Part shown: in pieces, positions 25 to 15,957 of the stretch
Layout: each line of letters begins with the position of its first letter
Position numbering within the stretch: the stretch's first letter is position 1
Assembly (NCBI GenBank): GCA_964446135.1
Contig: CAYUQA010000085.1
Coordinates: forward strand, 1-30,348
Length of the DNA: 30,348 nucleotides
Reading direction: 5' to 3'
Source of the DNA: an uncultured Candidatus Saccharibacteria bacterium
Lineage (GTDB): Bacteria; Patescibacteriota; Minisyncoccia; 2-02-FULL-40-12; IGHO2-01-FULL-4-A
Program-made: the position numbers and the translations under genes
Notes under the pieces: model-generated
The model's input: the letters and a program-made list of their open reading frames with translations, nothing else
What the model was told of the DNA's origin: nothing
Databases searched by the model: none

Positions 25-97
25 GCGCCCGTAGCTCAATCGGAAGAGCGACTGCCTTCGAAGCAGTAGGTTGTAGGTTCGAGCCCTGCCGGGCGCG
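25..97 (+). tRNA. tRNA-Arg, anticodon TCG; CCA not encoded (followed by CA)
   Basis: Cloverleaf: acceptor GCGCCCG 25-31/CGGGCGC 90-96, D-stem GCTC/GAGC with A20 Arg identity base, anticodon stem ACTGC/GCAGT around CT-TCG-AA, T-loop TTCGAGC. Confidence 0.96.
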
Positions 98-99
98 CA
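83..99 (+). repeat. 17-bp direct repeat copy 1 (tRNA-Arg 3' end, GCCCTGCCGGGCGCGCA)
   Basis: Identical to 198-214; flanking bases differ on both sides. Confidence 0.95.
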
Positions 100-214
100 G
101 TTTGTAGAATATGTCACGAATGTGACATATGACAGGCGAGAACGGTTCGATGACTGAGCGCGAGCGAAGAAATACCAAAGGCCAGCAGGCCGTGGTGGCC
201 CTGCCGGGCGCGCA
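100..214. mobile_element. 115-bp tRNA-anchored mini-element or island scar ending in a duplicate of the tRNA 3' end
   Basis: Bounded by 17-bp direct repeats; contains 9-bp perfect hairpin ATATGTCAC-GAAT-GTGACATAT (109-130), GGTTCGA T-loop copy (144-150) and an AGCA-loop hairpin (174-196). Confidence 0.5.
198..214 (+). repeat. 17-bp direct repeat copy 2 of tRNA-Arg 3' end
   Basis: Exact match to 83-99. Confidence 0.95.
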
Positions 215-238: not shown

Positions 239-267
239 TTGACTAAAATTCAATAAAATGGTATTAT
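239..267 (+). promoter_or_regulatory. sigma70-type promoter for the surface-protein/sortase pair
   Basis: TTGACT (239-244), 17-bp spacer, TATTAT (262-267) with extended TG at 259-260. Confidence 0.7.
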
Positions 268-319: not shown

Positions 320-2923
320 ATGAATACATCAATTCGCACCAAGACAGTCGTTATAGCATCAGTACTCTTTGCAGTACTTTTTTCGGTAGTTAACTTTGCC
401 GGTGTCCGCGCTGATCTTATCGACTCCGATGGCAACGTTGCATTTAATACTAACGACACAATCGACTCCAATGGCAATGGCTACGTCTTCTTCGGTCCAA
501 ACGACTCTATTGATCCAACACCGACCGTAACATTTCGTCCAAACGACTCTATAGACCCACTTCCAACCAATCTTCCTGACGGTTGTGGTATTGTCTACGG
601 TCGCAAAATAGTTTGCGGCGCTCCATTTTCAACTCCAACTATCAGGCCGCCACATATTCCTTTTTATCCTACTGTCATTCCAACATATACACCTACCTAT
701 ACACTAGTTCCGCGTCCCACTCGCACCATCACTCCAATGCCTCCGATACAAGTCTACCCTTCAGTTGACTTAAAGGTTCGTGCCGGTAACACAAGTAATT
801 TTGTAGATGGCACTATCACGATTGATCAAAATGTGCCGTTCGAACTCTCTTGGAATTCAAACAATGTCTCAACCTGTAATGCCTCGGGTAACTGGAATGG
901 CGCCCGTGGTACTGTCGGCGCGCTAGTCATCGAAGCTGGTCTACCAGCCGGTCAATATCTATATACGCTAACCTGCACAGGTATATTTGGTAATGCAACT
1001 GATTTTGTCAGAGTAAACATCCGCGGCCCAACAATCACGCCAACACCGACACCAAATGCGCCAACCGTACAACTTCGCGCCAATGGTAGTGATCAAGATA
1101 TTACCATCAACTATAATCAAGCAGTTGCTCTATCTTGGACTTCAACCAATGCCAGCTACTGTGTCGCATCAGGCGATTGGAGCGGAACAAAATCAACACA
1201 AGGTTCACAAACAATTTCAAATAATATATTTCGAAAAGTCTTCTTATTGACCTGTTATGGTCAAGGCGGTAGTGCTTCGGATATCATTAACGTCCATGTT
1301 AATAATCAGGTAACTCCAACACCAACTCCGACGACTGCCCCCTATCTTACAGTCTCATTACAACCACAACCTCAAAGCGGCTATGTACCATTTGCTTCGA
1401 CTTTAACCGCCACGATCAACAGCAACACAAACGGCCCAATCACTTATAAATTTGATTGTACTAATGACGGTATCTACGAAGGTATCTGGACAAATATCTC
1501 AAACACGGTCTGGTCATTTACTTGTAATTACAATCAAGCCGGTACCTATACTGCCAGAGTTATCGCCGAACGCGATGGTTTAACTGCTACAGATACTCGC
1601 GGTATTACTGCATACAATCAAAATAATTATCAGAACACAATAGTCGATCTTACGACTAACCGCACTTCTGTAAATACTGGCGATAGCGCAATCCTTTCTT
1701 GGAATTCCCAAAACGCACAGTACTGCATAGCATCAAATGGCTGGTACGGTAGCAAGGCCACATCTGGTAATGAAATAGTATATAATATTTTCTCAACTAC
1801 GACATTTGTATTAACTTGCTACGGGAACAACTCTGCTTCTGATATAGTCACCATCTCTACAAACTCAAATACAAACAACGGCACAGTCACATTATCAAAA
1901 TCGGTTCGTAACGTATCGCGCTCAAGTGGTCTTGGTAGTTCAATAAACGCACAACCAAACGATACACTCGAGTTCGTAATTACGGCTACCAATAACAGCA
2001 ACTCAACGGCAAACAATGTCCGTGTCTATGATTCATTGCCATATGGCTTGAATTACGTCAATAACTCCGCGACGCAAAACGGATATTCTACAAACGGCGA
2101 GATCGTAAACAACGGTGCCTATATCAATCTGTCGCCAAACCAGACGATAACCTTCCGTTTTCAAGCAACGGTATCGGATAGTTTTATCTTAAATTACATT
2201 TCTTCAACGATCACAAATGTTGCCAATGCCTCTACAAACAATGGCTACGTTACCAGTAACACTGCGACCATCTATGTAAATAAAACCGCGGCTGTCATTG
2301 ATAATACACAAACTGGAACTTTGAGTATCCAAAAATTCGGCAAAGATATAAGTAAAGGCGACGCTACCGAACGCTCAAACTTAACCGCACAACCAAACGA
2401 TACTATTGAGTTTGTATTACGCGTTCGTACGCTGACATCAAGCACGATAGATAACGTCTACGTTCGCGATATTATGCCTGATGGTTTAATATATGTTCCG
2501 CGCTCAACCAGTATCAATGGCATCTCGGCTGCGGATGGCATTGTCGGCAGTTCTGGCCTGTTGATCGGCTCAATTGGAGCTGGCAACGAGATCATCATCC
2601 GCTTCAACGCAACAGTTAGCGCACAATCTTTCCAACGCGCCAACACATCTATCACAAATACCGCTATCGCTTTTGTTAATCAAACCAATACCAGCGTACA
2701 GTCCGGCCTTCCAATCACAATCAACAATCCACTCTACGGCGGTGTTATATCAAACCCGGGCAATATACAAACTGGTTCCGGCACTCTTTTGATAGCACTC
2801 TTGACCGGCCTTGTTATTACCACAGGTTATGTATTCTATAACCGCAGTGGTTACTCACAGAACCGCAGACTCAATAGAATTCTAAAAAATTCTAAAGCAA
2901 AGACTCAGTTCAATTTTGTCTAA
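320..2923 (+). CDS. Large secreted surface protein (867 aa): signal peptide, Pro/Thr linkers, three Cys-paired Ig-like repeats, PKD-like domain, two DUF11-like domains, C-terminal sortase-type sorting signal
   Basis: N-terminal hydrophobic leader; LSWxSxN..C.AS..W.G repeated three times; DUF11-like EFVITATN..VYDSLPYGLNYV and EFVLRVR..VRDIMPDGLIYV; C-terminal NIQTG + hydrophobic helix + basic tail; directly upstream of sortase. Confidence 0.85.
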   Translation: MNTSIRTKTVVIASVLFAVLFSVVNFAGVRADLIDSDGNVAFNTNDTIDSNGNGYVFFGPNDSIDPTPTVTFRPNDSIDPLPTNLPDGCGIVYGRKIVCGAPFSTPTIRPPHIPFYPTVIPTYTPTYTLVPRPTRTITPMPPIQVYPSVDLKVRAGNTSNFVDGTITIDQNVPFELSWNSNNVSTCNASGNWNGARGTVGALVIEAGLPAGQYLYTLTCTGIFGNATDFVRVNIRGPTITPTPTPNAPTVQLRANGSDQDITINYNQAVALSWTSTNASYCVASGDWSGTKSTQGSQTISNNIFRKVFLLTCYGQGGSASDIINVHVNNQVTPTPTPTTAPYLTVSLQPQPQSGYVPFASTLTATINSNTNGPITYKFDCTNDGIYEGIWTNISNTVWSFTCNYNQAGTYTARVIAERDGLTATDTRGITAYNQNNYQNTIVDLTTNRTSVNTGDSAILSWNSQNAQYCIASNGWYGSKATSGNEIVYNIFSTTTFVLTCYGNNSASDIVTISTNSNTNNGTVTLSKSVRNVSRSSGLGSSINAQPNDTLEFVITATNNSNSTANNVRVYDSLPYGLNYVNNSATQNGYSTNGEIVNNGAYINLSPNQTITFRFQATVSDSFILNYISSTITNVANASTNNGYVTSNTATIYVNKTAAVIDNTQTGTLSIQKFGKDISKGDATERSNLTAQPNDTIEFVLRVRTLTSSTIDNVYVRDIMPDGLIYVPRSTSINGISAADGIVGSSGLLIGSIGAGNEIIIRFNATVSAQSFQRANTSITNTAIAFVNQTNTSVQSGLPITINNPLYGGVISNPGNIQTGSGTLLIALLTGLVITTGYVFYNRSGYSQNRRLNRILKNSKAKTQFNFV

Positions 2924-2946
2924 AATATTTTAGGCAAATCAATATT

Positions 2947-3555
2947 ATGAAACTTCGAGCTACAATAATCTTCGTCGTTGCATTTGTGATTATATTTGCA
3001 ACATTGAATTTCTCTTCAATCATAAATGAGTTTAATTTCGCGACGCGCGATGTGCTCAATGCTCAAAGTATCAATGCATTTTATCTGCCGCTTTCAGCAG
3101 ATAAGAAACAGCAAGATCTTACAGAAGAAGCGACTCTAGTCATCGAAAAGCTCAACATATCGGCACCGATTATTTTCTCAAAAGCTCAAACAACAGATGC
3201 TATATATACTGATCTAAAAAAGGGTGTTGTTGTATATCCGGGCAGTGTCAAACCGGGCGAGCAAGGCTCTTCGCTGATTCTTGGACATAGTTCGAGCTAT
3301 CTGTGGGATAAAAATAAATATGGCAATATTTTTGCCCTAATAAATAAACTTCAGATCGGCGACACTTTTAGCATCCGCTATGCTGACGGTCAAACGTTCC
3401 GTTTTCAAGTTGATGAGTCTCTAATATTCAATCCATTTGATTCAGATAGTCTTGCCAAATTAAGTGCTACCGAAACCAGCAACGTCATTCTCATGAGTTG
3501 TTGGCCGACCGGTACTTCACTCAAACGCATCGGTATCAAAGGCGTACGCATATAA
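2947..3555 (+). CDS. Sortase family transpeptidase (202 aa)
   Basis: N-terminal membrane anchor, L.I.KLNI strand, catalytic His in ILGHSS, catalytic Cys in VILMSCWP (TLxTC variant), downstream Arg in KRI. Confidence 0.88.
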   Translation: MKLRATIIFVVAFVIIFATLNFSSIINEFNFATRDVLNAQSINAFYLPLSADKKQQDLTEEATLVIEKLNISAPIIFSKAQTTDAIYTDLKKGVVVYPGSVKPGEQGSSLILGHSSSYLWDKNKYGNIFALINKLQIGDTFSIRYADGQTFRFQVDESLIFNPFDSDSLAKLSATETSNVILMSCWPTGTSLKRIGIKGVRI

Positions 3556-3642: not shown

Positions 3643-3718
3643 CCGCCCTTAGCTCAGTTGGTAGAGCTGCTCCCTCTTAAGGAGAAGGTCGTTGGTTCGA
3701 ATCCAACAGGGCGGACCA
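3643..3718 (+). tRNA. tRNA-Lys, anticodon CTT, with encoded CCA
   Basis: Acceptor CCGCCCT/AGGGCGG, discriminator A, CCA 3716-3718; D-stem GCTC/GAGC; anticodon loop CT-CTT-AA; T-arm GTTGG-TTCGAAT-CCAAC. Confidence 0.96.
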
Positions 3719-5189
3719 TTTGAGATTTTTTACCACCAGATTCTTTATTGATGGCGTAGATATTAGATAATTTGGTGGTTCCAAATTTCTCACCGTCAAA
3801 GAACGGTTTTTCGTCAAAAATCATATTTTGGAAACGAACATTATTTGGGTGAGTCAATCTTAGCCATGTTTTAGCTGTCTCTCTTACAAAGTTAAAACAA
3901 TAATCCAGAGATTCTTCCATGTTAAACTCTTCAATATGGCTCTCCTGTAATAGTTGCCGCTTTTCGTATATTTTCTGATTAATCAAATCTTTCTGCTCAA
4001 CAAACTCCTCATCGTTATATCTGCCCGCTCTATGAAGATCAAAAATTTTTAATCTATCTTGCTCTAGATTCTCAACCTCTTTATTTATTTGAACATTCTC
4101 CTCATTAAATCTTTTGTAATTTGACTGCCAAATATCTATCATGATGGCCTTAAACATTTTCTCGTATTTTTTATTCGGAGTAATCTTGGTTAAATATTCA
4201 ACAAATAACTGTTCAAATGTTTCTTTGGGTATAAACTTTGCATTCTCGCAATTTTGACGATGGTGATGATAGTAAGGATATTTTACCCTCTTTCTTCCGG
4301 TAGAATAGCTACCGGTTATAGAGGTTCTGCAATTAGGACAGACAACTTTTCTTAAGGGGAAATTGGGATTAGCGCTTATTCTTTGTGTAGATTGAGATCT
4401 ATCTTTCTTTTTGCGCTGGCATTGATTAAATAACTCCTCACTAACTATTCCAAATGAACTTTTTATTCTCATTCCCCACACATCTATAATCCCACAATAT
4501 ATCGGATTCTTAATTATTCGCTCCATTAGTTGAGCAAAAGGTATTTTATTATTTCTAGTTCTAAATCCACGTTCACCTATGAATTTAGCCAATGCACGAT
4601 AACTATATTTGCCCTTAGCATATTCTTCGAATAAAAGTCTTATGTAAACAGAATCTTGAGGATGTGGTTCAATATTCGAACCAGAGTAAGATCTATAAAA
4701 ACCAATAGGAGCCGCCCATGTCCAAATTCCCTTCTTAAGCTGTTCCATCATGCCACTTATGCTCCTTTCTTTTCTGACGTTATTGTCTAATTCGGCAAAG
4801 ACAGAAAGCACACCCTCCATAGCCCTACCAAAAGGCGTTTCATTAATCGGCTCCGTAACTGATTTAAGCTCTGTTCCGAATTTTCTTAATATCGTCCTAA
4901 CGTTGACGTGATCATCTTGATTCCTTGCAAAACGATCTAACTTGTAAACAATAAAATAGTTAATGGGCTTTTTTTTGTTAGAACAAAGCGATATCGCTTT
5001 CATAAACTCTGGCCTGTCAGCAGTCTTAGCCGATTCTCCACGATCAACAAAAACTTTCGGATCCATAATTCCTAATTTCGTAGCATATTCACGGCATAGT
5101 CTTTCTTGCATATCTAAACTTGTTCCCTCAACCTGTTCCTTTGAAGAAACCCTACAATACAACACTCCCGTTTTTGCTGATTCGCTCAT
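3654..5189 (-). CDS. Large serine recombinase/integrase (511 aa): resolvase catalytic domain, recombinase domain, zinc ribbon, coiled coil
   Basis: LYCRVSSKEQ catalytic Ser motif, YKLDRFARN, WAAPIGFY, CPNC..YYHH..C ribbon; last 21 codons and TGA lie antisense within tRNA-Lys. Confidence 0.93.
   Translation of the reverse strand: MSESAKTGVLYCRVSSKEQVEGTSLDMQERLCREYATKLGIMDPKVFVDRGESAKTADRPEFMKAISLCSNKKKPINYFIVYKLDRFARNQDDHVNVRTILRKFGTELKSVTEPINETPFGRAMEGVLSVFAELDNNVRKERSISGMMEQLKKGIWTWAAPIGFYRSYSGSNIEPHPQDSVYIRLLFEEYAKGKYSYRALAKFIGERGFRTRNNKIPFAQLMERIIKNPIYCGIIDVWGMRIKSSFGIVSEELFNQCQRKKKDRSQSTQRISANPNFPLRKVVCPNCRTSITGSYSTGRKRVKYPYYHHHRQNCENAKFIPKETFEQLFVEYLTKITPNKKYEKMFKAIMIDIWQSNYKRFNEENVQINKEVENLEQDRLKIFDLHRAGRYNDEEFVEQKDLINQKIYEKRQLLQESHIEEFNMEESLDYCFNFVRETAKTWLRLTHPNNVRFQNMIFDEKPFFDGEKFGTTKLSNIYAINKESGGKKSQMVRPVGFEPTTFSLRGSSSTN
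3698..3716 (+). repeat. attL-like 19-bp direct repeat (CGAATCCAACAGGGCGGAC)
   Basis: Exact match to 7653-7671; runs from the T-loop to the first C of CCA. Confidence 0.93.
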
Positions 5190-5383
5190 GACTGTATTTT
5201 ATTGCTTTCCCCAAGTTTGTGCAGTATCCCAATAGGATACTTGGAACCACTTACACTATCTAGCCAATCATCAAAAATAAGCCGTCCTAACTCATAATAT
5301 TTATCGCGTATCTTAATAGCCTCATCATCAGAGATGCCATTTAATTCTGGGTCTATTTTTCTTAATTTCTCTATGTTGAGCAT
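5186..5383 (-). CDS. Small hypothetical protein (65 aa) translationally coupled to the recombinase
   Basis: Stop overlaps recombinase start (ATGA at 5186-5189); helical charged sequence. Confidence 0.7.
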   Translation of the reverse strand: MLNIEKLRKIDPELNGISDDEAIKIRDKYYELGRLIFDDWLDSVSGSKYPIGILHKLGESNKIQS

Positions 5384-5439
5384 AGGGTATCAGTCTGTAT
5401 TTATTATCTCAACCTGGGGCATTTAAAGCCCAAAGGTCC

Positions 5440-5625
5440 CTACTTTTTACTACCTTTTCTCTCTATGTCCTCTGATAGTTTTCGGTAGTAATTCTCATTC
5501 TCTAAAATTGATTTGATTGAATAAGTTTTTCCATTCGAGGGAACTATGCCGTAATAAGCTCTAACAAAAGCATCCCTTAACTCCTTATTTGGTATTTGTT
5601 CAACTAAATTTATTGTCTGGATCAT
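5440..5625 (-). CDS. Small hypothetical protein (61 aa)
   Basis: ATG start, co-oriented with island genes, AT-rich upstream spacer. Confidence 0.55.
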   Translation of the reverse strand: MIQTINLVEQIPNKELRDAFVRAYYGIVPSNGKTYSIKSILENENYYRKLSEDIERKGSKK

Positions 5626-5633
5626 ATAGTTAT

Positions 5634-5948
5634 AAATAAAAATCCGCTTAATTCGATGGGGGTACCACTTGGAATGACGACCCCCGCCGAATCAAACGGA
5701 CATTTCCCAAGTAGTTTACCGCCAAAACAGAAAAAGACCTCTCGCTAGAGGCCCTTTCTTTAAATAATCGAGAAAAAGCTCTACTAGCTCTTTCTCGCTC
5801 ACGAGGCGAAGGATTTAACCATGTTCTGTATAGGCTTAAAAATCTTCAAGCCATCAAGACGCAGTGAATTTACCGAATAACGAATCGGGGAGGATCTCAC
5901 CCCCTGATTCACCAAGCAGTTTTCTCTCTGCCTTTAGAATCTACAGTT
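5634..5948 (-). ncRNA. Candidate structured RNA or attenuator leader of the recombinase operon
   Basis: ORF-free; stem-loops at 5914-5933, 5882-5910, 5769-5797, 5736-5753 (+U-tract) and 5643-5700 (+U-tract); A-C mismatches on + become G-U pairs on -; TTGACA at 5982-5977 on - upstream. Confidence 0.4.
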
Positions 5949-5984
5949 GATTCCATTAAAGCAATTCGTGTATCTTTGTCAATC

Positions 5985-6236
5985 TTATTTGTCGATAAAT
6001 ATCATTTTTGGCACTTCGATTGTCGTCTCTATCGGCGTGACTGGTCTCCCGAACGCACGATCAAATAAAATCTGAGTTGCCTTTAAATCACCTTGCTTTG
6101 CGCGCTCTATAAGTCCAGTAACGATTAGTCCCAAAGAATTCCCAACTTGCTGAACTATATACTCTCGGAACTTCTCAGCCTGAACGCCACTAAATCCCTG
6201 TTTCCTGCCTGCATTTTCTCTATATCCACCTCTCAT
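5985..6236 (-). CDS. Hypothetical protein (83 aa) resembling phage terminase small-subunit-like/DUF5681-type proteins
   Basis: N-terminal GGYRENAGRKQG and C-terminal GDLKATQILFDRAFGRP resemble motifs remembered from such phage proteins; function not verified. Confidence 0.55.
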   Translation of the reverse strand: MRGGYRENAGRKQGFSGVQAEKFREYIVQQVGNSLGLIVTGLIERAKQGDLKATQILFDRAFGRPVTPIETTIEVPKMIFIDK

Positions 6237-6273
6237 AAAATTTGATAAGAATCAAAGATGATAATCGCAAAGA

Positions 6274-7290
6274 TTACCAAGAATTAATTTGGAAACTACC
6301 ATTGTTTATCTGCTGGGTTTGTATTCTGGTGCCACCAGGACCATAGCAGTCATAACCACCGTTAAGTGGGTGACAGATTGTTGAAGAATAGCTTCCGGAT
6401 TGATCAATATAGCCAGTATACGGTGATACGGGAAGCTTAACACCCATATCTTTGAGTTTTTGTATGGCATTGTATTCCAGCTGACTTGCCGTCCAATATC
6501 CTCCTGCTGCCTGGTATTCCTTAAGGAGTTGCTCCTTAACTTCGGCTAATTTATCGTTGTATTGTTTCCACTCGGTCTCAAATCGAGCTATTGCTGGATC
6601 TTTCTGATATTGAGCAGGTTTGTTTACGGCAGAGTTGGCAGATTGCATCTGCAACATCATTTCCCGCAAAAATTGATTAGCTTGATCCATTTGCTGACCA
6701 TAATTTTTAATCTGTTTTAATGATTGCTGTGTAGAAGCTTCAAAAGCATCTACTTGTTGGTTATATAATCCGATTGTTCTTATCTCTAGATTCTCATATT
6801 CTGCTATAACATCAGTTCTAGGATTTTCACCCTTTTTCAATCTATCAATTTCCTTATCTACCAAATCTAAAAGAGTATATTGATATCCAAGCGCAGTGGT
6901 GTTTGCATCTCTTAAGCCAGGAGCAGTGTTATTGGTTATTATTAAATTATTTTTGGTGATTTGATTTCTTAAAGCCTCAAGTCGTTGGATAACTGTTTTA
7001 TCCATTATTGGAATTGTTGTCTTTACGGTTCTCTGAACTTTTTTGACAGCAGCTCCTTTGTTCGTGTTTTTTACTTCCGAGGGTTTCGTAACATATTTTT
7101 TCTCAGATTCCTCTTTCATCATTCGTTGAAGTCCACTGGACTTATCAATTAAAGAGTCTTGTTGGACAGCTTCTTGCTTAAAAAGTTGCCAATTATCGAA
7201 CCAAGTAAAAGGATTCCACCAAGCTGCAAAAGTAACTTGCGGATAGAGTATAATTCCCAAAATCAAGCTAAATAGTATACCTTTCTTCAT
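6274..7290 (-). CDS. Secreted coiled-coil hypothetical protein (338 aa from MKKGILF) with AAWWNPFTW motif
   Basis: Signal peptide MKKGILFSLILGIILYPQVTFA; C-terminal Cys pair; start chosen at 7290 because the promoter lies at 7298-7326. Confidence 0.8.
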   Translation of the reverse strand: MKKGILFSLILGIILYPQVTFAAWWNPFTWFDNWQLFKQEAVQQDSLIDKSSGLQRMMKEESEKKYVTKPSEVKNTNKGAAVKKVQRTVKTTIPIMDKTVIQRLEALRNQITKNNLIITNNTAPGLRDANTTALGYQYTLLDLVDKEIDRLKKGENPRTDVIAEYENLEIRTIGLYNQQVDAFEASTQQSLKQIKNYGQQMDQANQFLREMMLQMQSANSAVNKPAQYQKDPAIARFETEWKQYNDKLAEVKEQLLKEYQAAGGYWTASQLEYNAIQKLKDMGVKLPVSPYTGYIDQSGSYSSTICHPLNGGYDCYGPGGTRIQTQQINNGSFQINSW

Positions 7291-7297
7291 AAAATAT

Positions 7298-7326
7298 ATT
7301 ATAACATAAAATTCTTTAGATTGCAA
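7298..7326 (-). promoter_or_regulatory. sigma70 promoter giving a leaderless mRNA for 6274-7290
   Basis: TTGCAA (7326-7321), 17 bp, TG-n-TATAAT (7303-7298); ATG lies 7 nt after the -10 box. Confidence 0.7.
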
Positions 7327-7547
7327 TTAGGGTACTTGAATCCGCTCTTCTGCGACTTTATCTCGGATTCTAATATCAGAGGGTATTATATCGCCAAGAA
7401 TAATCGCTATTTTCAAGCACTTTTCCAAAATCTCTCCATTTGTTAAGCTCTAATAATAGGTGATTCCAATTCTGTCCTATTAGGCGGACATTCTAAACAA
7501 TAAAGTCGAATTTATTTGGCTTTATTGTTTAGATATATTTTGTATCT

Positions 7548-7652
7548 TGTTGGATTCGAACGCCGGAGCGACTGTTTCGTCAGCAGACGAAACCGCGAGG
7601 CGCGGCCTGGAGACCTAGTTCCGACGGCTGGTCGGGACTAGAGTCGAAATGG
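7548..7652. repeat. tRNA T-arm mirror plus GC-rich hairpin cassette at the island right end
   Basis: 7548-7561 (TGTTGGATTCGAAC) is the exact reverse complement of tRNA-Lys 3695-3708; hairpins GTTTCGTC-AGCA-GACGAAAC (7574-7593), CCGCG-AGG-CGCGG (7593-7605), CTAGTTCCGAC-GGCTG-GTCGGGACTAG (7615-7641). Confidence 0.8.
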
Positions 7653-7671
7653 CGAATCCAACAGGGCGGAC
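7653..7671 (+). repeat. attR-like 19-bp direct repeat of tRNA-Lys 3' end
   Basis: Exact match to 3698-3716; followed by AAAC rather than CA. Confidence 0.93.
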
Positions 7672-7696
7672 AAACTATCTTTCACAAGGAGACGGT

Positions 7697-11356: not shown

Positions 11357-12657
11357 ACAATCTCCTCGACCGCTCTTGCGCCCTGTTCTAGAAGTGAGAA
11401 CACCTTGTCTGTGGTTAGTGTCTCTCTTATCTGACTTTTCATTCTCTCTATGGTCTCCGGTTTTAACTGCTCGGGATTCTGGCCAAGGCGGACCATTGAA
11501 TACTGCAACAGAGCCTGAAGCTCTACGTCGACCTCATCTTCAGAGACCGAGATATTCTCCGCGCGAGCAATCGCTCGCAACACTAGATTTGCTTTTACTT
11601 GTGATTCGGCCTGCTTGCACCATTCTTTTCTAAGCTCCTCTTCTGTTTTTTTAATATGCACCAGATATAAAGCCAGTTCGAGACCATTTCGATGAAGCTC
11701 TTCATCGAAAGAGGCGATCATTGAATCCAGTCGCTCGTTGATAAGCGTCTCCGGGATATCGGCTTCACTTTTTTGGGCGACTTGCTCCATTAGGTTTAGT
11801 CTTATTTTTTCTTTTGCCTTATCATTTTTTTCTTTAAATAAACCGTCACGAATACTTGCCCTTAAATCATCGGCTGTCTGAAAAGAGCCAAGAGAAGCGA
11901 CAAAAGAATCGTTGAGTTCGGGAGTCTCACGATCCTCTATTTTTTTTACTGTAACTTCGGCATGTAGCGTCTTGCCAGCGATAGTTTGTTGGTAATAATC
12001 AGCTGGTATTTCAAGATTGAATTCTTTAAACTCGCTCTTCTTCATGCCGACAATATGATCCTCAAAGCCAACAACAAATTTGTTGTCACCTATAGTTATG
12101 GGGTGATTTTCACTTTTGCCGCCGTCAATAACGGCATCGCCTTCTTTAATAATAAAATCGACTTCAACACGATCACCATTCTGGGCTGGGCGGTCAACTT
12201 CATTAAAAACTGTGCGTGATTTTGTAATATCTTGGACCACCTTATCTACCTCTTCGTCGCTGACAGATATAGTCTCTGGTTTAAATTTAAGATCAACATA
12301 ACTTCCGAGTTTTATATTAGGGAACAGAGATAGTAAGACTTCGAATTTTAAAAGGTCTTTGGAATTTTCAAGAACCTTTAGATCACTATAGGAGATAAAA
12401 TCCAACTTTTCTTTTTTGACTACGTTCGAAAGACTATTCTCAATTGCCATATTGAGGGCCTCTTGTCTGATATGGTCTTCGCCAACTTTTTTACGAAATA
12501 TATCCGGCGGCGTTTTGCCGGGACGAAATCCCTCTAGTGTGCTTTGCTTTATCATCGCCTGCTCGGTAGCCTCTATAAATCCGGCCAAATCGGAACTATC
12601 TAAATCAATAGTTAGTTTAACTCGACTGTCCTTTAGCTCTGTAACCTTATGTTCCAT
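11350..12657 (-). CDS. tig: Trigger factor (435 aa)
   Basis: Ribosome-binding GFRPGKTP signature, FKBP domain (GDRVEVDF, GFEDHIVGMK), C-terminal chaperone domain. Confidence 0.95.
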   Translation of the reverse strand: MEHKVTELKDSRVKLTIDLDSSDLAGFIEATEQAMIKQSTLEGFRPGKTPPDIFRKKVGEDHIRQEALNMAIENSLSNVVKKEKLDFISYSDLKVLENSKDLLKFEVLLSLFPNIKLGSYVDLKFKPETISVSDEEVDKVVQDITKSRTVFNEVDRPAQNGDRVEVDFIIKEGDAVIDGGKSENHPITIGDNKFVVGFEDHIVGMKKSEFKEFNLEIPADYYQQTIAGKTLHAEVTVKKIEDRETPELNDSFVASLGSFQTADDLRASIRDGLFKEKNDKAKEKIRLNLMEQVAQKSEADIPETLINERLDSMIASFDEELHRNGLELALYLVHIKKTEEELRKEWCKQAESQVKANLVLRAIARAENISVSEDEVDVELQALLQYSMVRLGQNPEQLKPETIERMKSQIRETLTTDKVFSLLEQGARAVEEIVS

Positions 12658-12658
12658 A

Positions 12659-13999
12659 TTATTCTTCTGTTTTTATATCTGGACTTTCTCCTTCTGATAT
12701 CGAGACAGGAGTCTCCAGATCAACTTCGCTTTCTTTTGCGGTCTTCGTTGATTCTGCACTTTCAGATTCAACTGAAGTCTCGCCTTCAGCTACCACCTCT
12801 GCTTCTGCGGATTTTATTTCGCCCTGAGGAGCGCGAACATCTATCTTCCAGCCAGTTAATTTGGCCGCCAGACGAACGTTCTGGCCGCTTTTTCCAATAG
12901 CAAGTGAGAATTGATCATCAGCAACTTCGACTAATGCGTGGTGGTGTGCTTCGTCTAAAATTTTGACATTTAAAATCTTCGCCGGAGAAAGTGCTTGCGC
13001 GATAAAACGTTCTGTGTCCTCACTCCATTCAACAATATCTATCTTCTCACCACTAAGCTCGTTAATAACAGTTTGGACACGAACACCTTTCTGGCCAACC
13101 AAAGAGCCGATGGGATCAACGCCGCTCTCATGGGAGAGTACGGCGATCTTTGAACGAGACCCGGCTTCGCGAGCAATCGTACGAATTTCTACAGTGCCAG
13201 CTTCAATCTCCGGCACCTCAAAGCGGAATAGTTGCAAAACCAAATCTGGATGAGAGCGACTTAGTAGAATAACTGGCCCCCTGTTTGTCTCATCAACTCG
13301 CAATATTAAAAAACGCAAACGTTGACCGATACGATAACGATCATTCGGTAATTGCTCTATGGGCAAGAGTAGTCCGGTAGTGCGTCCGATATCGACATAA
13401 ACCATGCGACCTTCGATGCGCTGAACCAAACCAGAGATAATCGATCCCTCCTTGTTTTTAAATTCAGCATACACGACTTCTCGTTCAACCTCTCTAAGAC
13501 GTTGTATCACCACCTGCTTTGCTGTTTGCGCGGCGATACGACCAAAATCTGTTTTGGTTTCAAGAGGAAAGGTAACTTCCTCACCGACATTAATATTAGC
13601 ATTTATGCCACGAGCATCATCTATTGTAATATATTTTTCGGGATTAAAACGCACTCGAGCATCTTCTGGGCTTTGTTCTTCTGATTCTAAAACCTGCCTA
13701 TCTGGACCTTGGCGATTAGATCTATCTTCATATTCTTCTTTTACGCCTGCATCTGGTACTGGACCAACGACATACCCCTCTTCGTCGAACCCCTCAACCA
13801 CAAATTTGACCTGCCATATAGTAAACTCGCCCGTAGTTCGATCAAGATTAGCTCGAATGACCTGGCCTTTCTCGCCATAGTCTTTTTTATAAGCAGCCGA
13901 AACAGCCGCTTCTATCGTCTCAACTATCTTATCTTCGGGAATCCCTTTTTCTTCGGCAATCTGCTGAATCGCTGAAATAAATTGTTTGGTATCAAGCAT
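12659..13999 (-). CDS. nusA: Transcription termination/antitermination factor NusA (446 aa)
   Basis: FGRIAAQTAKQV, S1 domain, IAREAGSRSKIAV, DPIGSLVGQKGVRVQ, AIGKSGQNVRLAAKLTGWKID. Confidence 0.97.
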   Translation of the reverse strand: MLDTKQFISAIQQIAEEKGIPEDKIVETIEAAVSAAYKKDYGEKGQVIRANLDRTTGEFTIWQVKFVVEGFDEEGYVVGPVPDAGVKEEYEDRSNRQGPDRQVLESEEQSPEDARVRFNPEKYITIDDARGINANINVGEEVTFPLETKTDFGRIAAQTAKQVVIQRLREVEREVVYAEFKNKEGSIISGLVQRIEGRMVYVDIGRTTGLLLPIEQLPNDRYRIGQRLRFLILRVDETNRGPVILLSRSHPDLVLQLFRFEVPEIEAGTVEIRTIAREAGSRSKIAVLSHESGVDPIGSLVGQKGVRVQTVINELSGEKIDIVEWSEDTERFIAQALSPAKILNVKILDEAHHHALVEVADDQFSLAIGKSGQNVRLAAKLTGWKIDVRAPQGEIKSAEAEVVAEGETSVESESAESTKTAKESEVDLETPVSISEGESPDIKTEE

Positions 14000-14025
14000 A
14001 GTATATAAACATTATGACCCCTGTT

Positions 14026-14052
14026 AAAAAGGAAATCCGCACCTCGGCGGAC
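14026..14052 (-). terminator. Weak terminator-like hairpin in the nusA 5' leader
   Basis: On -: GTCCGC-CGAGGT-GCGGAT followed by interrupted tract TTCCTTTTT, 26 nt before nusA ATG. Confidence 0.5.
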
Positions 14053-14089
14053 ATACTCTTTCATAAGTCACTCTGTTCTGTATGTATCC

Positions 14090-14310: not shown

Positions 14311-15957
14311 ATGGTCAATATCTCAACACAGTCACAAAAAAAGACAGCGGAATTGGAAAAAAAGCTCTCGTCGCTTGAGAGCGTTGAGGTTGAGAGCAAC
14401 GTCAAAGAAGAAGCCAAAAAGCTATCCTTGCCGTATGTTGATCTGTCTTCTTACCCCGTCAACGTTAACGCCCTATTTCTACTTAGTGAGCAAGACTCGC
14501 GTACTGGACAGTGCGCTGTTGTTGAAAAGGCTGGGCAGACTATCACAATCGCGGTTAGAGACCCTAAAAACAACCAGACTCTATACATATTAAACACACT
14601 GAAGGACAGGGGGTTTACAATAAATCAAGTCTTAGTATCTGAAGTTGGCCTTGAAAACGTATGGAAACGCTATAGCGAACGCCAAGAAATCAGATTTGAG
14701 AATCCAGGCATTTTAGAAATAGGCGAGGCGGATATCAAATCGATAGAGGATATCGCTAATAAATTAAGTAATCTAGCCGTCACTGACATTTTGGAGAGTA
14801 TTATTGCGGCGGCGCTTAAGGCAGGATCTTCGGACATTCACCTTGAGCCAGAAGAAAAGAGTGTTCGTCTGCGTTTTCGTATTGATGGGGTGCTTCGAGA
14901 TGTAACAAACATCAATCACGACACATATCCGGGAGTATTGTCTCGTATAAAAGTAGTCTCCGGGCTCAAACTCAATATTCACGATGCGCCGCAAGATGGT
15001 CGTTTTACAATCCGCCAGAATAAAAAAGATACTGATGTTCGCGTTTCGATATTACCCGGTGCCTATGGCGAGAATGTAGTCGCTCGTATTTTAAACCCAG
15101 AAGCAGTTACCCATAAGATCGAGGACCTCGGTATGCGACCGGCGCTTTTGGCAGAAACTCGTGAGGTATTAAAGAAAACAACTGGCGCCTTATTGACAAC
15201 GGGACCGACCGGATCAGGAAAAACGACTACACTCTATGCGTTCCTTGAGGAAGTAAACAATTCTGGCGTTAAAATCATCACCATAGAGGACCCAATCGAG
15301 TATCACGTTCAAGGGGTTTCACAAACACAAGTGGACGATACGGCTGACTATACATTTGCTGATGGTTTGCGATCGATTATGCGACAAGATCCGGACGTGA
15401 TTCTGGTTGGAGAAATTCGCGATGGTGAGACAGCCGAGATCGCCATGCAGGCAGCGCTTACAGGACACTTTGTTTTTTCAACACTTCACACCAACGACGC
15501 CGCCGGAGCCATTCCGAGACTGATTGATCTAGGCGTAACTCCCATTACTATAGCTCCGGCTATCAAAGCGGTTATGGCCCAACGCCTTATTAGGCGCATA
15601 TGTAGCGCCTGTGCTGAGAAGAAGTCAATCACAGCAAGTGATAAGGCGACGCTAGAAAAATATTTTAAAAATCTACCGGATAAACAAGCGATTGATATTA
15701 GCTCCATTTCCGAGCTTACATATCCAAAAGGTTGTGATGCCTGTGATAAATCAGGATATAAAGGACGCGTCGGGGTATTCGAACTTTTTACTATTGATGA
15801 CGAGATCGAAAAGTTAATTCTACAATCACCTGCGATATCGACAGTCAGGGATATTGCGATTAAAAAGGGCATGGTCCCGATGTTGCAAGACGGTTTATTG
15901 CGAGTAATTGAAGGTATGACAACCGTCGATGAGGTGATTAGAGTAGTTGGAACGTAA
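14311..15957 (+). CDS. pilB: Type IV pilus assembly/type II secretion ATPase, PilB/GspE family (548 aa)
   Basis: SDIHLEP, Walker A GPTGSGKTT, Asp box TIEDPIEY, Walker B RQDPDVILVGEIRD, His box TLHTND, CxxC..CxxC zinc site. Confidence 0.9.
   Translation: MVNISTQSQKKTAELEKKLSSLESVEVESNVKEEAKKLSLPYVDLSSYPVNVNALFLLSEQDSRTGQCAVVEKAGQTITIAVRDPKNNQTLYILNTLKDRGFTINQVLVSEVGLENVWKRYSERQEIRFENPGILEIGEADIKSIEDIANKLSNLAVTDILESIIAAALKAGSSDIHLEPEEKSVRLRFRIDGVLRDVTNINHDTYPGVLSRIKVVSGLKLNIHDAPQDGRFTIRQNKKDTDVRVSILPGAYGENVVARILNPEAVTHKIEDLGMRPALLAETREVLKKTTGALLTTGPTGSGKTTTLYAFLEEVNNSGVKIITIEDPIEYHVQGVSQTQVDDTADYTFADGLRSIMRQDPDVILVGEIRDGETAEIAMQAALTGHFVFSTLHTNDAAGAIPRLIDLGVTPITIAPAIKAVMAQRLIRRICSACAEKKSITASDKATLEKYFKNLPDKQAIDISSISELTYPKGCDACDKSGYKGRVGVFELFTIDDEIEKLILQSPAISTVRDIAIKKGMVPMLQDGLLRVIEGMTTVDEVIRVVGT

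Follow-up and report, generated by a model that had tools for sequence, protein, structure and literature searches.

Why does the 3′ end of a tRNA gene reappear a short distance behind the gene itself? The question arises at the left edge of contig CAYUQA010000085.1 (assembly GCA_964446135.1) from an uncultured Candidatus Saccharibacteria bacterium, whose 30,348 nucleotides (nt) form the window analysed here. The window starts 24 nt upstream of a tRNA-Arg(TCG) gene, and the last 17 nt of the tRNA region (GCCCTGCCGGGCGCGCA, 83-99) return at 198-214 after a gap of 98 nt. tRNA genes are classic landing sites for mobile DNA, and leftover tRNA fragments are usually read as dead footprints. A direct repeat of the tRNA 3′ end marks site-specific integration in tRNA genes (Islander, PMC4383910), and remnants with partial tRNAs are found beside island tRNAs (tycheposon preprint, 10.1101/2020.12.28.424599). 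In the present case, a fold that is conserved and compensated accompanies the footprint, together with an antisense T-arm copy, and the combination recurs at about one in five of the tRNAs examined, in uncultured and poorly understood bacteria. We tentatively propose that the segment 100-214, hereafter the Arg cassette, is a small non-coding, non-autonomous insertion that is specific for tRNA 3′ ends and whose fold is under selection.

The 17-mer occurs exactly twice in the window against 0.02 copies expected, and none of 100 shuffles reached two copies, which confirms the repeat that an earlier note on this DNA had pointed out. The AGCA-loop hairpin of that note (ACCA-AA-GGCC-AGCA-GGCC-G-TGGT, 174-196) and a GAAC (140-143) are also present. 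The downstream copy takes part in a closing stem, in which CAGGC (133-137) pairs with GCC(C)TG (198-203). The 5′ strand of this stem falls in GACAGGCGAGAAC, the weak counterpart of perfect inverted copies that occur elsewhere in the family. The preceding spacer holds a perfect AT-rich palindrome (109-130), which occupies the slot of the tRNA terminator-like hairpin in other family members; no T-run follows this palindrome and no terminator was called there. The spacer is variable: in one variant from run X2, ..GGCGCACA and a further 15 bases lead into cassette position 136. A loose end in run X1 (TAAGAGCACAAAA after position 99) was considered as an empty-site allele and rejected, being a second placement of a 40-nt contig that covers 188-227.

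The interior of the Arg cassette holds a conserved 48-nt module. A metagenome scan with 20 nt of its hairpin returned 13 loci, 10 of which are chance matches in coding DNA of unrelated genomes. The three true homologues are L043 and the pair L039 and L042, which represent the same Yanofskybacteria locus; further strain contigs of that locus are identical. Two substitutions separate the window from L042 across the 48-nt block GATGACTGAGCG(N)GAGCGARGAAAT and its hairpin, and two substitutions and a 1-nt indel separate the module from that of L043. The sequence around the module is unalignable between the three, and the module-closing stem differs in each copy (CAGGC/GCC(C)TG in the window, TTGGGC/GCCCAA in L043, GGCTCGC/GCGAGCC in L042). 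Furthermore, in the two metagenomes containing the window, the depth at positions ~150-195 is 4-7 times that of the flanks, and the module is found in other contigs there with different sequence on either side.

These homologues also bear on the role of GGTTCGA (144-150), which the earlier note took for a displaced T-loop, so that the tRNA end would have been duplicated and split there. The description is wrong because the 7-mer is not kept in the homologues, which read GGTACGA (L043) and CTCGCGA (L042), and sits within a conserved block (..CGATGAC..). Its count is near chance (6 occurrences in the window against 3.1 expected, with at least 6 in 9 of 100 shuffles). Judged from this alignment, GGTTCGA most likely belongs to the module and its T-loop match is coincidental. 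An intron-like splitting of the T-loop by an insert was likewise rejected, as the 5′ pieces of the Lys, Ser and Phe cassettes described below are the reverse complement of the T-loop/T-stem 3′ strand and not a direct copy. The Ser and Phe T-loops are non-palindromic, so their 5′ arm is clearly a reverse complement.

The Arg cassette is absent from a counterpart of this locus. L059, a syntenic contig of assembly GCA_034680565.1, has the gene order DUF11 protein, sortase, tRNA-Lys, HAD hydrolase, aminotransferase, DsbA-like protein and trigger factor. Its aminotransferase is 64% and its DUF11 protein 55% identical to those of the window, within a range of 45-64% for the neighbouring proteins. 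The tRNA-Arg of L059 equals that of the window except for the discriminator base (A instead of G) and is followed by a hairpin and then by the promoter-like site of the DUF11 gene, TTGACT-17-TATTAT, at 2481-2509. No second copy of the tRNA end and no module were found at this tRNA-Arg locus. Comparing orthologous tRNA-Arg loci, as the earlier note had suggested, thus finds 100-214 present in the window and missing in L059, with the near-identical tRNA and the shared promoter-like site as anchors of the comparison.

Similar arrangements recur behind other tRNA genes. For all 33 tRNAs in 264 kilobases (kb) of non-redundant loci, the 400 nt downstream were scanned for a same-strand copy of the tRNA 3′-end 11-mer, with one mismatch allowed. 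Such a copy was found at 4 of the tRNAs against ~0.1 expected; the controls gave none on the opposite strand and one upstream, in low-complexity coding DNA. With shorter or diverged repeats added the count rises to 7 of 33, comprising Arg and Lys in the window, Lys, Phe and Leu in L025, Leu in L051 and Ser in L042. These cassettes lie on the tRNA strand directly behind tRNA genes of Parcubacteria (candidate phyla radiation), measure 100-230 nt, and share one order in all seven cases. The tRNA is followed by a short spacer that usually contains a palindromic or terminator-like hairpin, by an inverted T-loop/T-stem 3′ strand with GAAC at its end, by a core, and by a direct copy of the last 12-24 nt of the tRNA. 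The inverted and direct copies pair and thereby close a multi-helix core into a compact fold. Four cassettes have a perfect inverted copy over 11-14 nt (Lys TGTTGGATTCGAAC, Ser GGAGGGAGTCGAAC, Phe GGGAATTGAAC and L051 Leu GACTTGAACC). Six of the seven lie within ~200 nt of the tRNA with no gene or pseudogene between, and the seventh, the Lys cassette of the window, is parted from its tRNA only by an inserted island.

The cores fall into several kinds. GC-rich cores with a domain that we term P2 are found in the Lys cassettes of the window and L059, in L042 Ser and in L025 Leu; the module is borne by the cores of window Arg, L042 and L043; and the AT-rich hairpin cores of L025 Phe and L051 Leu are unrelated. 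Orthologous tRNA-Leu(GAG) loci beside rplS in L025 and L051 have unrelated cores, as do the tRNA-Lys loci of L025 and the window. Both Leu cassettes carry CCA after the downstream copy and not after the gene's own end. The three cassettes of L025 (tRNA-Lys, Phe and Leu) share one 21-kb Parcubacteria locus (coordinates 14891-15036 and 15455-15655; the L051 cassette is at 13950-14080). The L025 Phe cassette, whose fold comprises a closing stem and three hairpins (z = -7.2), stops 12 nt short of the next tRNA gene.

One of these cassettes ties the two elements of the window together. In L042, a 180-nt cassette follows tRNA-Ser(GGA), and its frame matches that of 7548-7672, with TCGAACGCCGGAGCGA, a hairpin, CCGCGAGGCG, and then GAGTCGAA..CGAATCC and a tRNA-like 3′ block. 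The Arg module is nested in the second branch of this cassette. As it joins Arg-type and Lys-type sequence, we conclude that the Arg and Lys elements of the window are one family, which bears out the earlier suggestion that the Arg element is a second gene-free instance of the kind at 7548-7671. The C-AGCA-G loop cited in favour of that suggestion is real in both elements, but the Arg and Lys hairpins correspond to two different domains of one architecture, both of which are found in L042. By the same comparison, the Arg element is recognizable as a short version, consisting of the inner domain and the tRNA 3′ block without the P2 domain.

The fold appears to be what these cassettes conserve. 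Between the window and L059, the Lys cassettes share 82% identity over aligned columns and adopt similar folds (z = -7.0 and -3.5, respectively). Neutral intergenic DNA should not align between genomes whose neighbouring proteins have diverged this far, which argues that the fold is under selection. Across four cassettes, RNAalifold predicts 15 pairs in the P2 domain, 6 of them changed on both sides, with 59 of 60 cells paired. For three sequences, 97.8% of cells are paired compared with 29-40% when the partners are slid, and 4 of 500 shuffles reach the observed covariation. Through these compensated pairs, the family provisionally qualifies as a conserved structured single strand, RNA or single-stranded DNA, on the basis of four sequences. 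All wobble pairs are G-U on the tRNA strand and would be A-C mismatches on the other strand. This suggests that the tRNA-sense strand acts in single-stranded form, for which RNA is the simplest candidate. A P2 covariance model matches just its three source cassettes in 273 kb (L059 not being among the sequences).

The cassettes show no sign of coding. Five reading frames of 100-240 had no match among 5.8 billion proteins. A minus-strand frame (..GLLAFGISSLALSH..) and a plus-strand ORF (MTERERRNTKGQQ..) from metagenome contigs were rejected as candidates, having no protein match and homologues with a 1-nt indel. Only the two tRNAs of the window match Rfam 15 at gathering scores, and at E-values up to 10 the Arg, Lys and Ser cassettes returned nothing credible. 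A transfer-messenger RNA (tmRNA) or permuted tmRNA was considered, as the 5′ GGATTCGA resembles the tmRNA D-loop analogue, and was dismissed when ARAGORN and Rfam found none; a hammerhead, group II domain V or other ribozyme has no Rfam match either. A genome collection scan with the tRNA 24-mer hit solely an unrelated Rubrobacteraceae contig, scans of viral contigs with four cassette patterns and with the recombinase described below found nothing related, and BLAST of the full L042 cassette against cultured phages and plasmids gave no match. The module and P2 are in none of the islands, phages, plasmids and viral contigs searched, and no description of such cassettes was found in the literature searched. 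We conclude that the family is so far undescribed in Rfam, these collections and this literature.

We favour the reading that site-specific recombination would have brought the Arg cassette into the tRNA gene at its 3′ end, with the direct repeat as the footprint of that integration, as with islands in tRNA genes. An enzyme encoded elsewhere would move it. Selection would maintain the fold, most probably in an RNA transcribed from the tRNA strand, and the core may be built of exchangeable domains, of which the Arg copy would hold one, the 48-nt module, together with its degenerate inverted copy. The gene-free state is the normal state of the family and not a derived one. If mobile, the cassettes would be the smallest site-specific insertions known at tRNA genes, which would raise the question of what moves them.

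Several results weigh against this reading. No free form, empty-site read or moving enzyme was found for the cassettes, and a 115-bp circle is implausibly small for double-stranded site-specific recombination. The segment 128-214 alone folds no better than shuffles (z = -0.48), and the z of -3.8 obtained for 100-216 is probably owed mostly to the AT-rich palindrome. The covariation comes from 3-4 sequences and is provisional, and the tRNA frequencies are biased and indicative only, since the recombinase or the module served to pick the loci. The L042 cassette combines an inverted copy in perfect agreement with the tRNA and a downstream direct copy that differs from the end of the tRNA itself, which is unexpected for a simple displaced fragment and fits none of the readings well. 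The tRNA-Lys pair 7:66 is likewise hard to fit to any of them; it is T:A in the window and G:C in L059 and is tracked by the downstream copy, reading A and C, respectively. Finally, two genomes have the Lys cassette conserved at the same locus, as would be expected equally of a host function and of repeated site-specific acquisition.

Such a host function is the best of the alternatives, although we consider it somewhat unlikely. The cassette would be a vertically inherited small RNA or leader that mimics the adjacent tRNA, and its closing helix would show the T-stem and acceptor 3′ strand, so that it could serve a tRNA-recognizing protein, for instance, as decoy or operator. Selection or gene conversion, and not integration, would keep the repeat identical to the tRNA. 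The shared position of the Lys cassette in the window and L059, the compensatory changes that hold its structure, the way its downstream copy follows the host tRNA at 7:66 and the restriction of G-U pairs to the tRNA strand all speak for this idea. In L059, moreover, terminator-like hairpins flank the cassette on both sides, as they would a separate transcription unit. A TATATT box is found 5-10 nt upstream of the first paired cassette base and just past the tRNA terminator in the Lys copies of the window (7534-7547) and L059 (6129-6142) and in the Ser copy of L042 (3600-3611); it may be the -10 element of a separate cassette transcript. No -35 was found with the box in these three copies, and no full promoter was called at the window or L059 cassette, which tells against the idea, as does the lack of an Rfam match. 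A purely vertical host RNA gene is disfavoured because the cassettes are present or absent between relatives, as at tRNA-Arg of L059, and because orthologous tRNA-Leu and tRNA-Lys loci have unrelated cores; the occurrence of one module at different tRNAs in distant lineages argues in the same direction.

If the cassettes are host RNAs, they represent a new family of tRNA-mimicking RNAs. Like the tRNA-like domain of tmRNA, YrlA, mascRNA and viral tRNA-like RNAs, they have a 3′ T-stem and acceptor 3′ strand with discriminator and CA or CCA. They differ in having no T-loop, acceptor 5′ strand or Rfam match, and their tRNA-like strand is buried in a helix with its own complement. As a separate observation, the tRNA-Ser 3′ end, downstream hairpin and inverted copy of L042 (3538-3632) form a long imperfect palindrome with arms of ~45 nt, and the Lys loci of the window and L059 have a like palindrome with an unpaired middle part. 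The palindrome looks as if it had been extended around the terminator, or as if it deliberately offered the 3′ half of the tRNA an alternative partner.

A bolder version of the mobile reading would make the cassettes a new class of tRNA-gene-specific mobile element that is common in bacteria of the candidate phyla radiation. Its active form would be a folded single strand, RNA or DNA, in which pairing of the antisense and sense tRNA arms, instead of an encoded protein, might specify the target, whether guided by nucleic acid or by mimicry of a hairpin. We rate this as unlikely.

A plain scar is, in our view, a little less probable still. An island with an integrase would once have resided in tRNA-Arg and lost its interior, leaving two junctions and nothing functional. 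In its favour, the repeat of the tRNA 3′ end is the classical mark of tRNA-gene islands, remnants with partial tRNAs are common beside island tRNAs, and the inverted copy of the Arg cassette is degenerate. A neutral scar would not, however, hold a 48-nt module at 96% identity to the Yanofskybacteria copy, nor are compensatory changes expected of it. Decayed islands should also give intermediate sizes and integrase fragments, whereas six of the seven cassettes are close to their tRNA with neither gene nor pseudogene, and no tested frame matches any protein. A dead scar is thus disfavoured by the clean size range of 100-230 nt, the lack of gene fragments, the compensated fold and the near-identical module at different tRNAs of distant Parcubacteria.

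The closest known counterparts of the cassettes are the att-bounded remnants of tRNA-integrating elements or cis-mobilizable elements (CIMEs) and, in structure, the hairpins of integron attC and CTX attP. By the logic of Islander, the Arg cassette has an intact tRNA and a displaced direct 3′ fragment downstream (83-99 = 198-214); an integrase gene between the two is lacking, as the intervening 98 nt have no protein match. Like a CIME, the Arg cassette is flanked by att-like repeats and has no recombinase or transfer genes, but it shares no att sites with a known autonomous element, and the serine-recombinase island of the window uses a different junction. More generally, att fragments of tRNA islands and CIMEs resemble the cassettes in that a 12-24-nt repeat of the tRNA 3′ end bounds the insert, the tRNA stays intact, no own recombinase is present and the insert varies between relatives. 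CIMEs measure kilobases, however, and the cassettes 100-230 nt, with an inverted T-arm copy and a compensated multi-helix fold in addition.

By analogy with integron attC and CTX phage attP, the cassette could instead be a folded single-stranded DNA recombination site, whose paired arms would imitate a double-stranded target and allow exchange of one strand with the tRNA gene. We regard this as improbable. The order of target copy, spacer, inverted copy, structured loop and target copy is what CTX/XerCD-type and attC-type integrations leave, and the cassettes have the same order. They also share with these sites an imperfect palindrome of ~60-150 nt, structure that is kept more than sequence, inverted and direct target copies, and core lengths (~50-150 nt) that resemble attC; the T-loop GTTCRAN agrees with the integron core GTTRRRY at 6 of 7 positions. 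An attC site has R″ (RYYYAAC) at its 5′ end and R′ (GTTRRRY) at its 3′ end, L boxes and extrahelical bases, and lies near IntI or in an array of sites. The cassettes depart from this plan, with ..GAAC at the inner end of the 5′ arm, so that ..GAAC and GTTC.. are arranged opposite to the R″/R′ boxes, and with a tRNA 3′ end as target. Neither gene cassettes nor arrays occur; no integron integrase was found with Pfam in the first ten ORFs, and none of the cassettes is linked to IntI, a Xer-type partner or a single-stranded replicon. DNA tolerates G-T pairs, but RNA is the better fit for the wobble pairs.

That the Arg cassette is a miniature or trans-mobilized relative of the large-serine-recombinase island next to tRNA-Lys, as the earlier note had suggested, is barely credible: this recombinase family does abut tRNA 3′ ends, and the window and L025 each have a cassette near one such island, but the island uses a different junction, L059 has a cassette without an island, no cassette was found within 12 kb of five other recombinase islands, and no island in the 273 kb searched contains a match to the P2 covariance model.

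The boundaries of this island emerge from comparison with other loci. Its end at 7462-7490 (..GATTCCAATTCTGTCCTATTAGGCGGAC) is 96.6% identical over 29 nt to the end of the L025 island, which is 82% identical to the window island, and homology stops at 7490. At the far junction, GGCGGAC is all that the island has in common with the tRNA; L047 follows this pattern with GGGTGGAC. After 7490 come a terminator-like hairpin and then the Lys cassette, so that 7548-7671 is not the attachment site of the island that it had been taken for, and the Lys cassette is not its attR. In L059, which has no island, tRNA-Lys is followed directly by its terminator (6085-6128) and then by the cassette (TGTTGGATTCGAAC, core, GATTCCAACCGGGCGGAC, to ~6262), with a second terminator-like hairpin after it. 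From this series we infer that the window island was inserted between tRNA-Lys and its terminator when the cassette was already present. A contig of run X2 that joins 3716 to 7545 via 20 other bases represents a third island-free arrangement. Because the island ends at 7490 and L059 has the Lys cassette without it, the Arg and Lys cassettes are, to judge by these boundaries, not part of the serine-recombinase island. Automated island mapping by a tRNA and its displaced fragment would misplace island ends in these genomes, as at tRNA-Lys.

Miniature inverted-repeat transposable elements (MITEs) resemble the cassettes in being small, non-coding, multi-copy and patchy, with inverted-repeat ends that form a stem. 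The cassette arms, in contrast, match the adjacent tRNA and differ in each copy, insertion is strictly site-specific, and the target repeat of 12-24 nt differs from a short target-site duplication.

The features of the window are collected in the table.

Table. Features of the Arg and Lys loci in the 30,348-nt window
Feature	Position	Strand	Remarks
tRNA-Arg(TCG) gene	25..98	+	CCA not encoded, end ..CGGGCGC-G-CA; ARAGORN; Rfam tRNA, 70.2 bits
Direct repeat 1 (DR1)	83..99	+	last 17 nt of the tRNA region: T-loop end, T-stem 3′ strand, acceptor 3′ strand, discriminator, CA
Perfect AT-rich palindrome	109..130	+	ATATGTCAC-GAAT-GTGACATAT; spacer of the Arg cassette
GACAGGCGAGAAC	131..143	+	degenerate inverted copy of T-loop/T-stem 3′ strand, ~10/14 with gap; read from sequence
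Conserved 48-nt module	149..196	+	GATGACTGAGCGCGAGCGAAGAAAT and hairpin ACCAAAGGCC-AGCA-GGCCGTGGT (174-196); GGTTCGA (144-150) at 5′ edge
Direct repeat 2 (DR2)	198..214	+	second direct copy of the tRNA-Arg 3′ end; closes the Arg cassette
Promoter-like site TTGACT-17-TATTAT	239..267	+	of the DUF11 surface-protein gene 320-2923
tRNA-Lys(CTT)	3643..3718	+	ARAGORN, Rfam; left junction of the island (attL) ~3716/3717
Recombinase ORF	3654-5189	-	511 aa; Pfam Resolvase, Recombinase and Zn ribbon
Large-serine-recombinase island	3717..7490	-	right end is the conserved 29 nt 7462-7490, ending GGCGGAC
Terminator-like hairpin, T-rich tail	7492..7533	+	native tRNA-Lys terminator, displaced by the island
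Full-length cassette at tRNA-Lys	7548..7672	+	
Inverted copy of the Lys cassette	7548-7561		TGTTGGATTCGAAC
P2 domain of the Lys cassette	~7561-7603		includes AGCA-loop hairpin 7574-7593
Second branch of the Lys cassette	~7605-7650		
Direct copy of the Lys cassette	7653-7672		CGAATCCAACAGGGCGGACA

The recombinase belongs to a family of ~505-aa serine recombinases of Parcubacteria with more than 2400 homologues, the best 120 of which are at least 53% identical. Its last ~20 codons run antisense through tRNA-Lys (tail ..MVRPVGFEPTTFSLRGSSSTN), and the first island bases after the tRNA encode a conserved stretch, GGKKSQM. The 3′ end of the recombinase gene overlaps an opposite-strand tRNA gene (Lys, Glu, Arg or Ala) in 9 of 10 distinct loci; no tRNA was detected in the tenth, L050. 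A changed recombinase C-terminus in the excised form was considered and withdrawn, as it rested on a wrong far junction at 7653. In L025, L028, L030, L032, L046, L047 and L051, integration is at the extreme tRNA 3′ end with 7-8 nt common to the far junction, and the islands of this family span ~4-7 kb, made up of small unknown genes.

The stretch between tRNA-Arg and tRNA-Lys (320-3555 in the window, 2606-5901 in L059) encodes a conserved pair of proteins, a DUF11/CLIPPER-repeat surface protein (867 aa) and a sortase. In L025, just 25 nt separate these two tRNAs, and the sequence of its tRNA-Arg(TCG) gene is quite different. L046 carries a tyrosine integrase gene (11660-12829) across from a serine-recombinase island at the same tRNA-Arg(TCT), placing two recombinase types at one tRNA.

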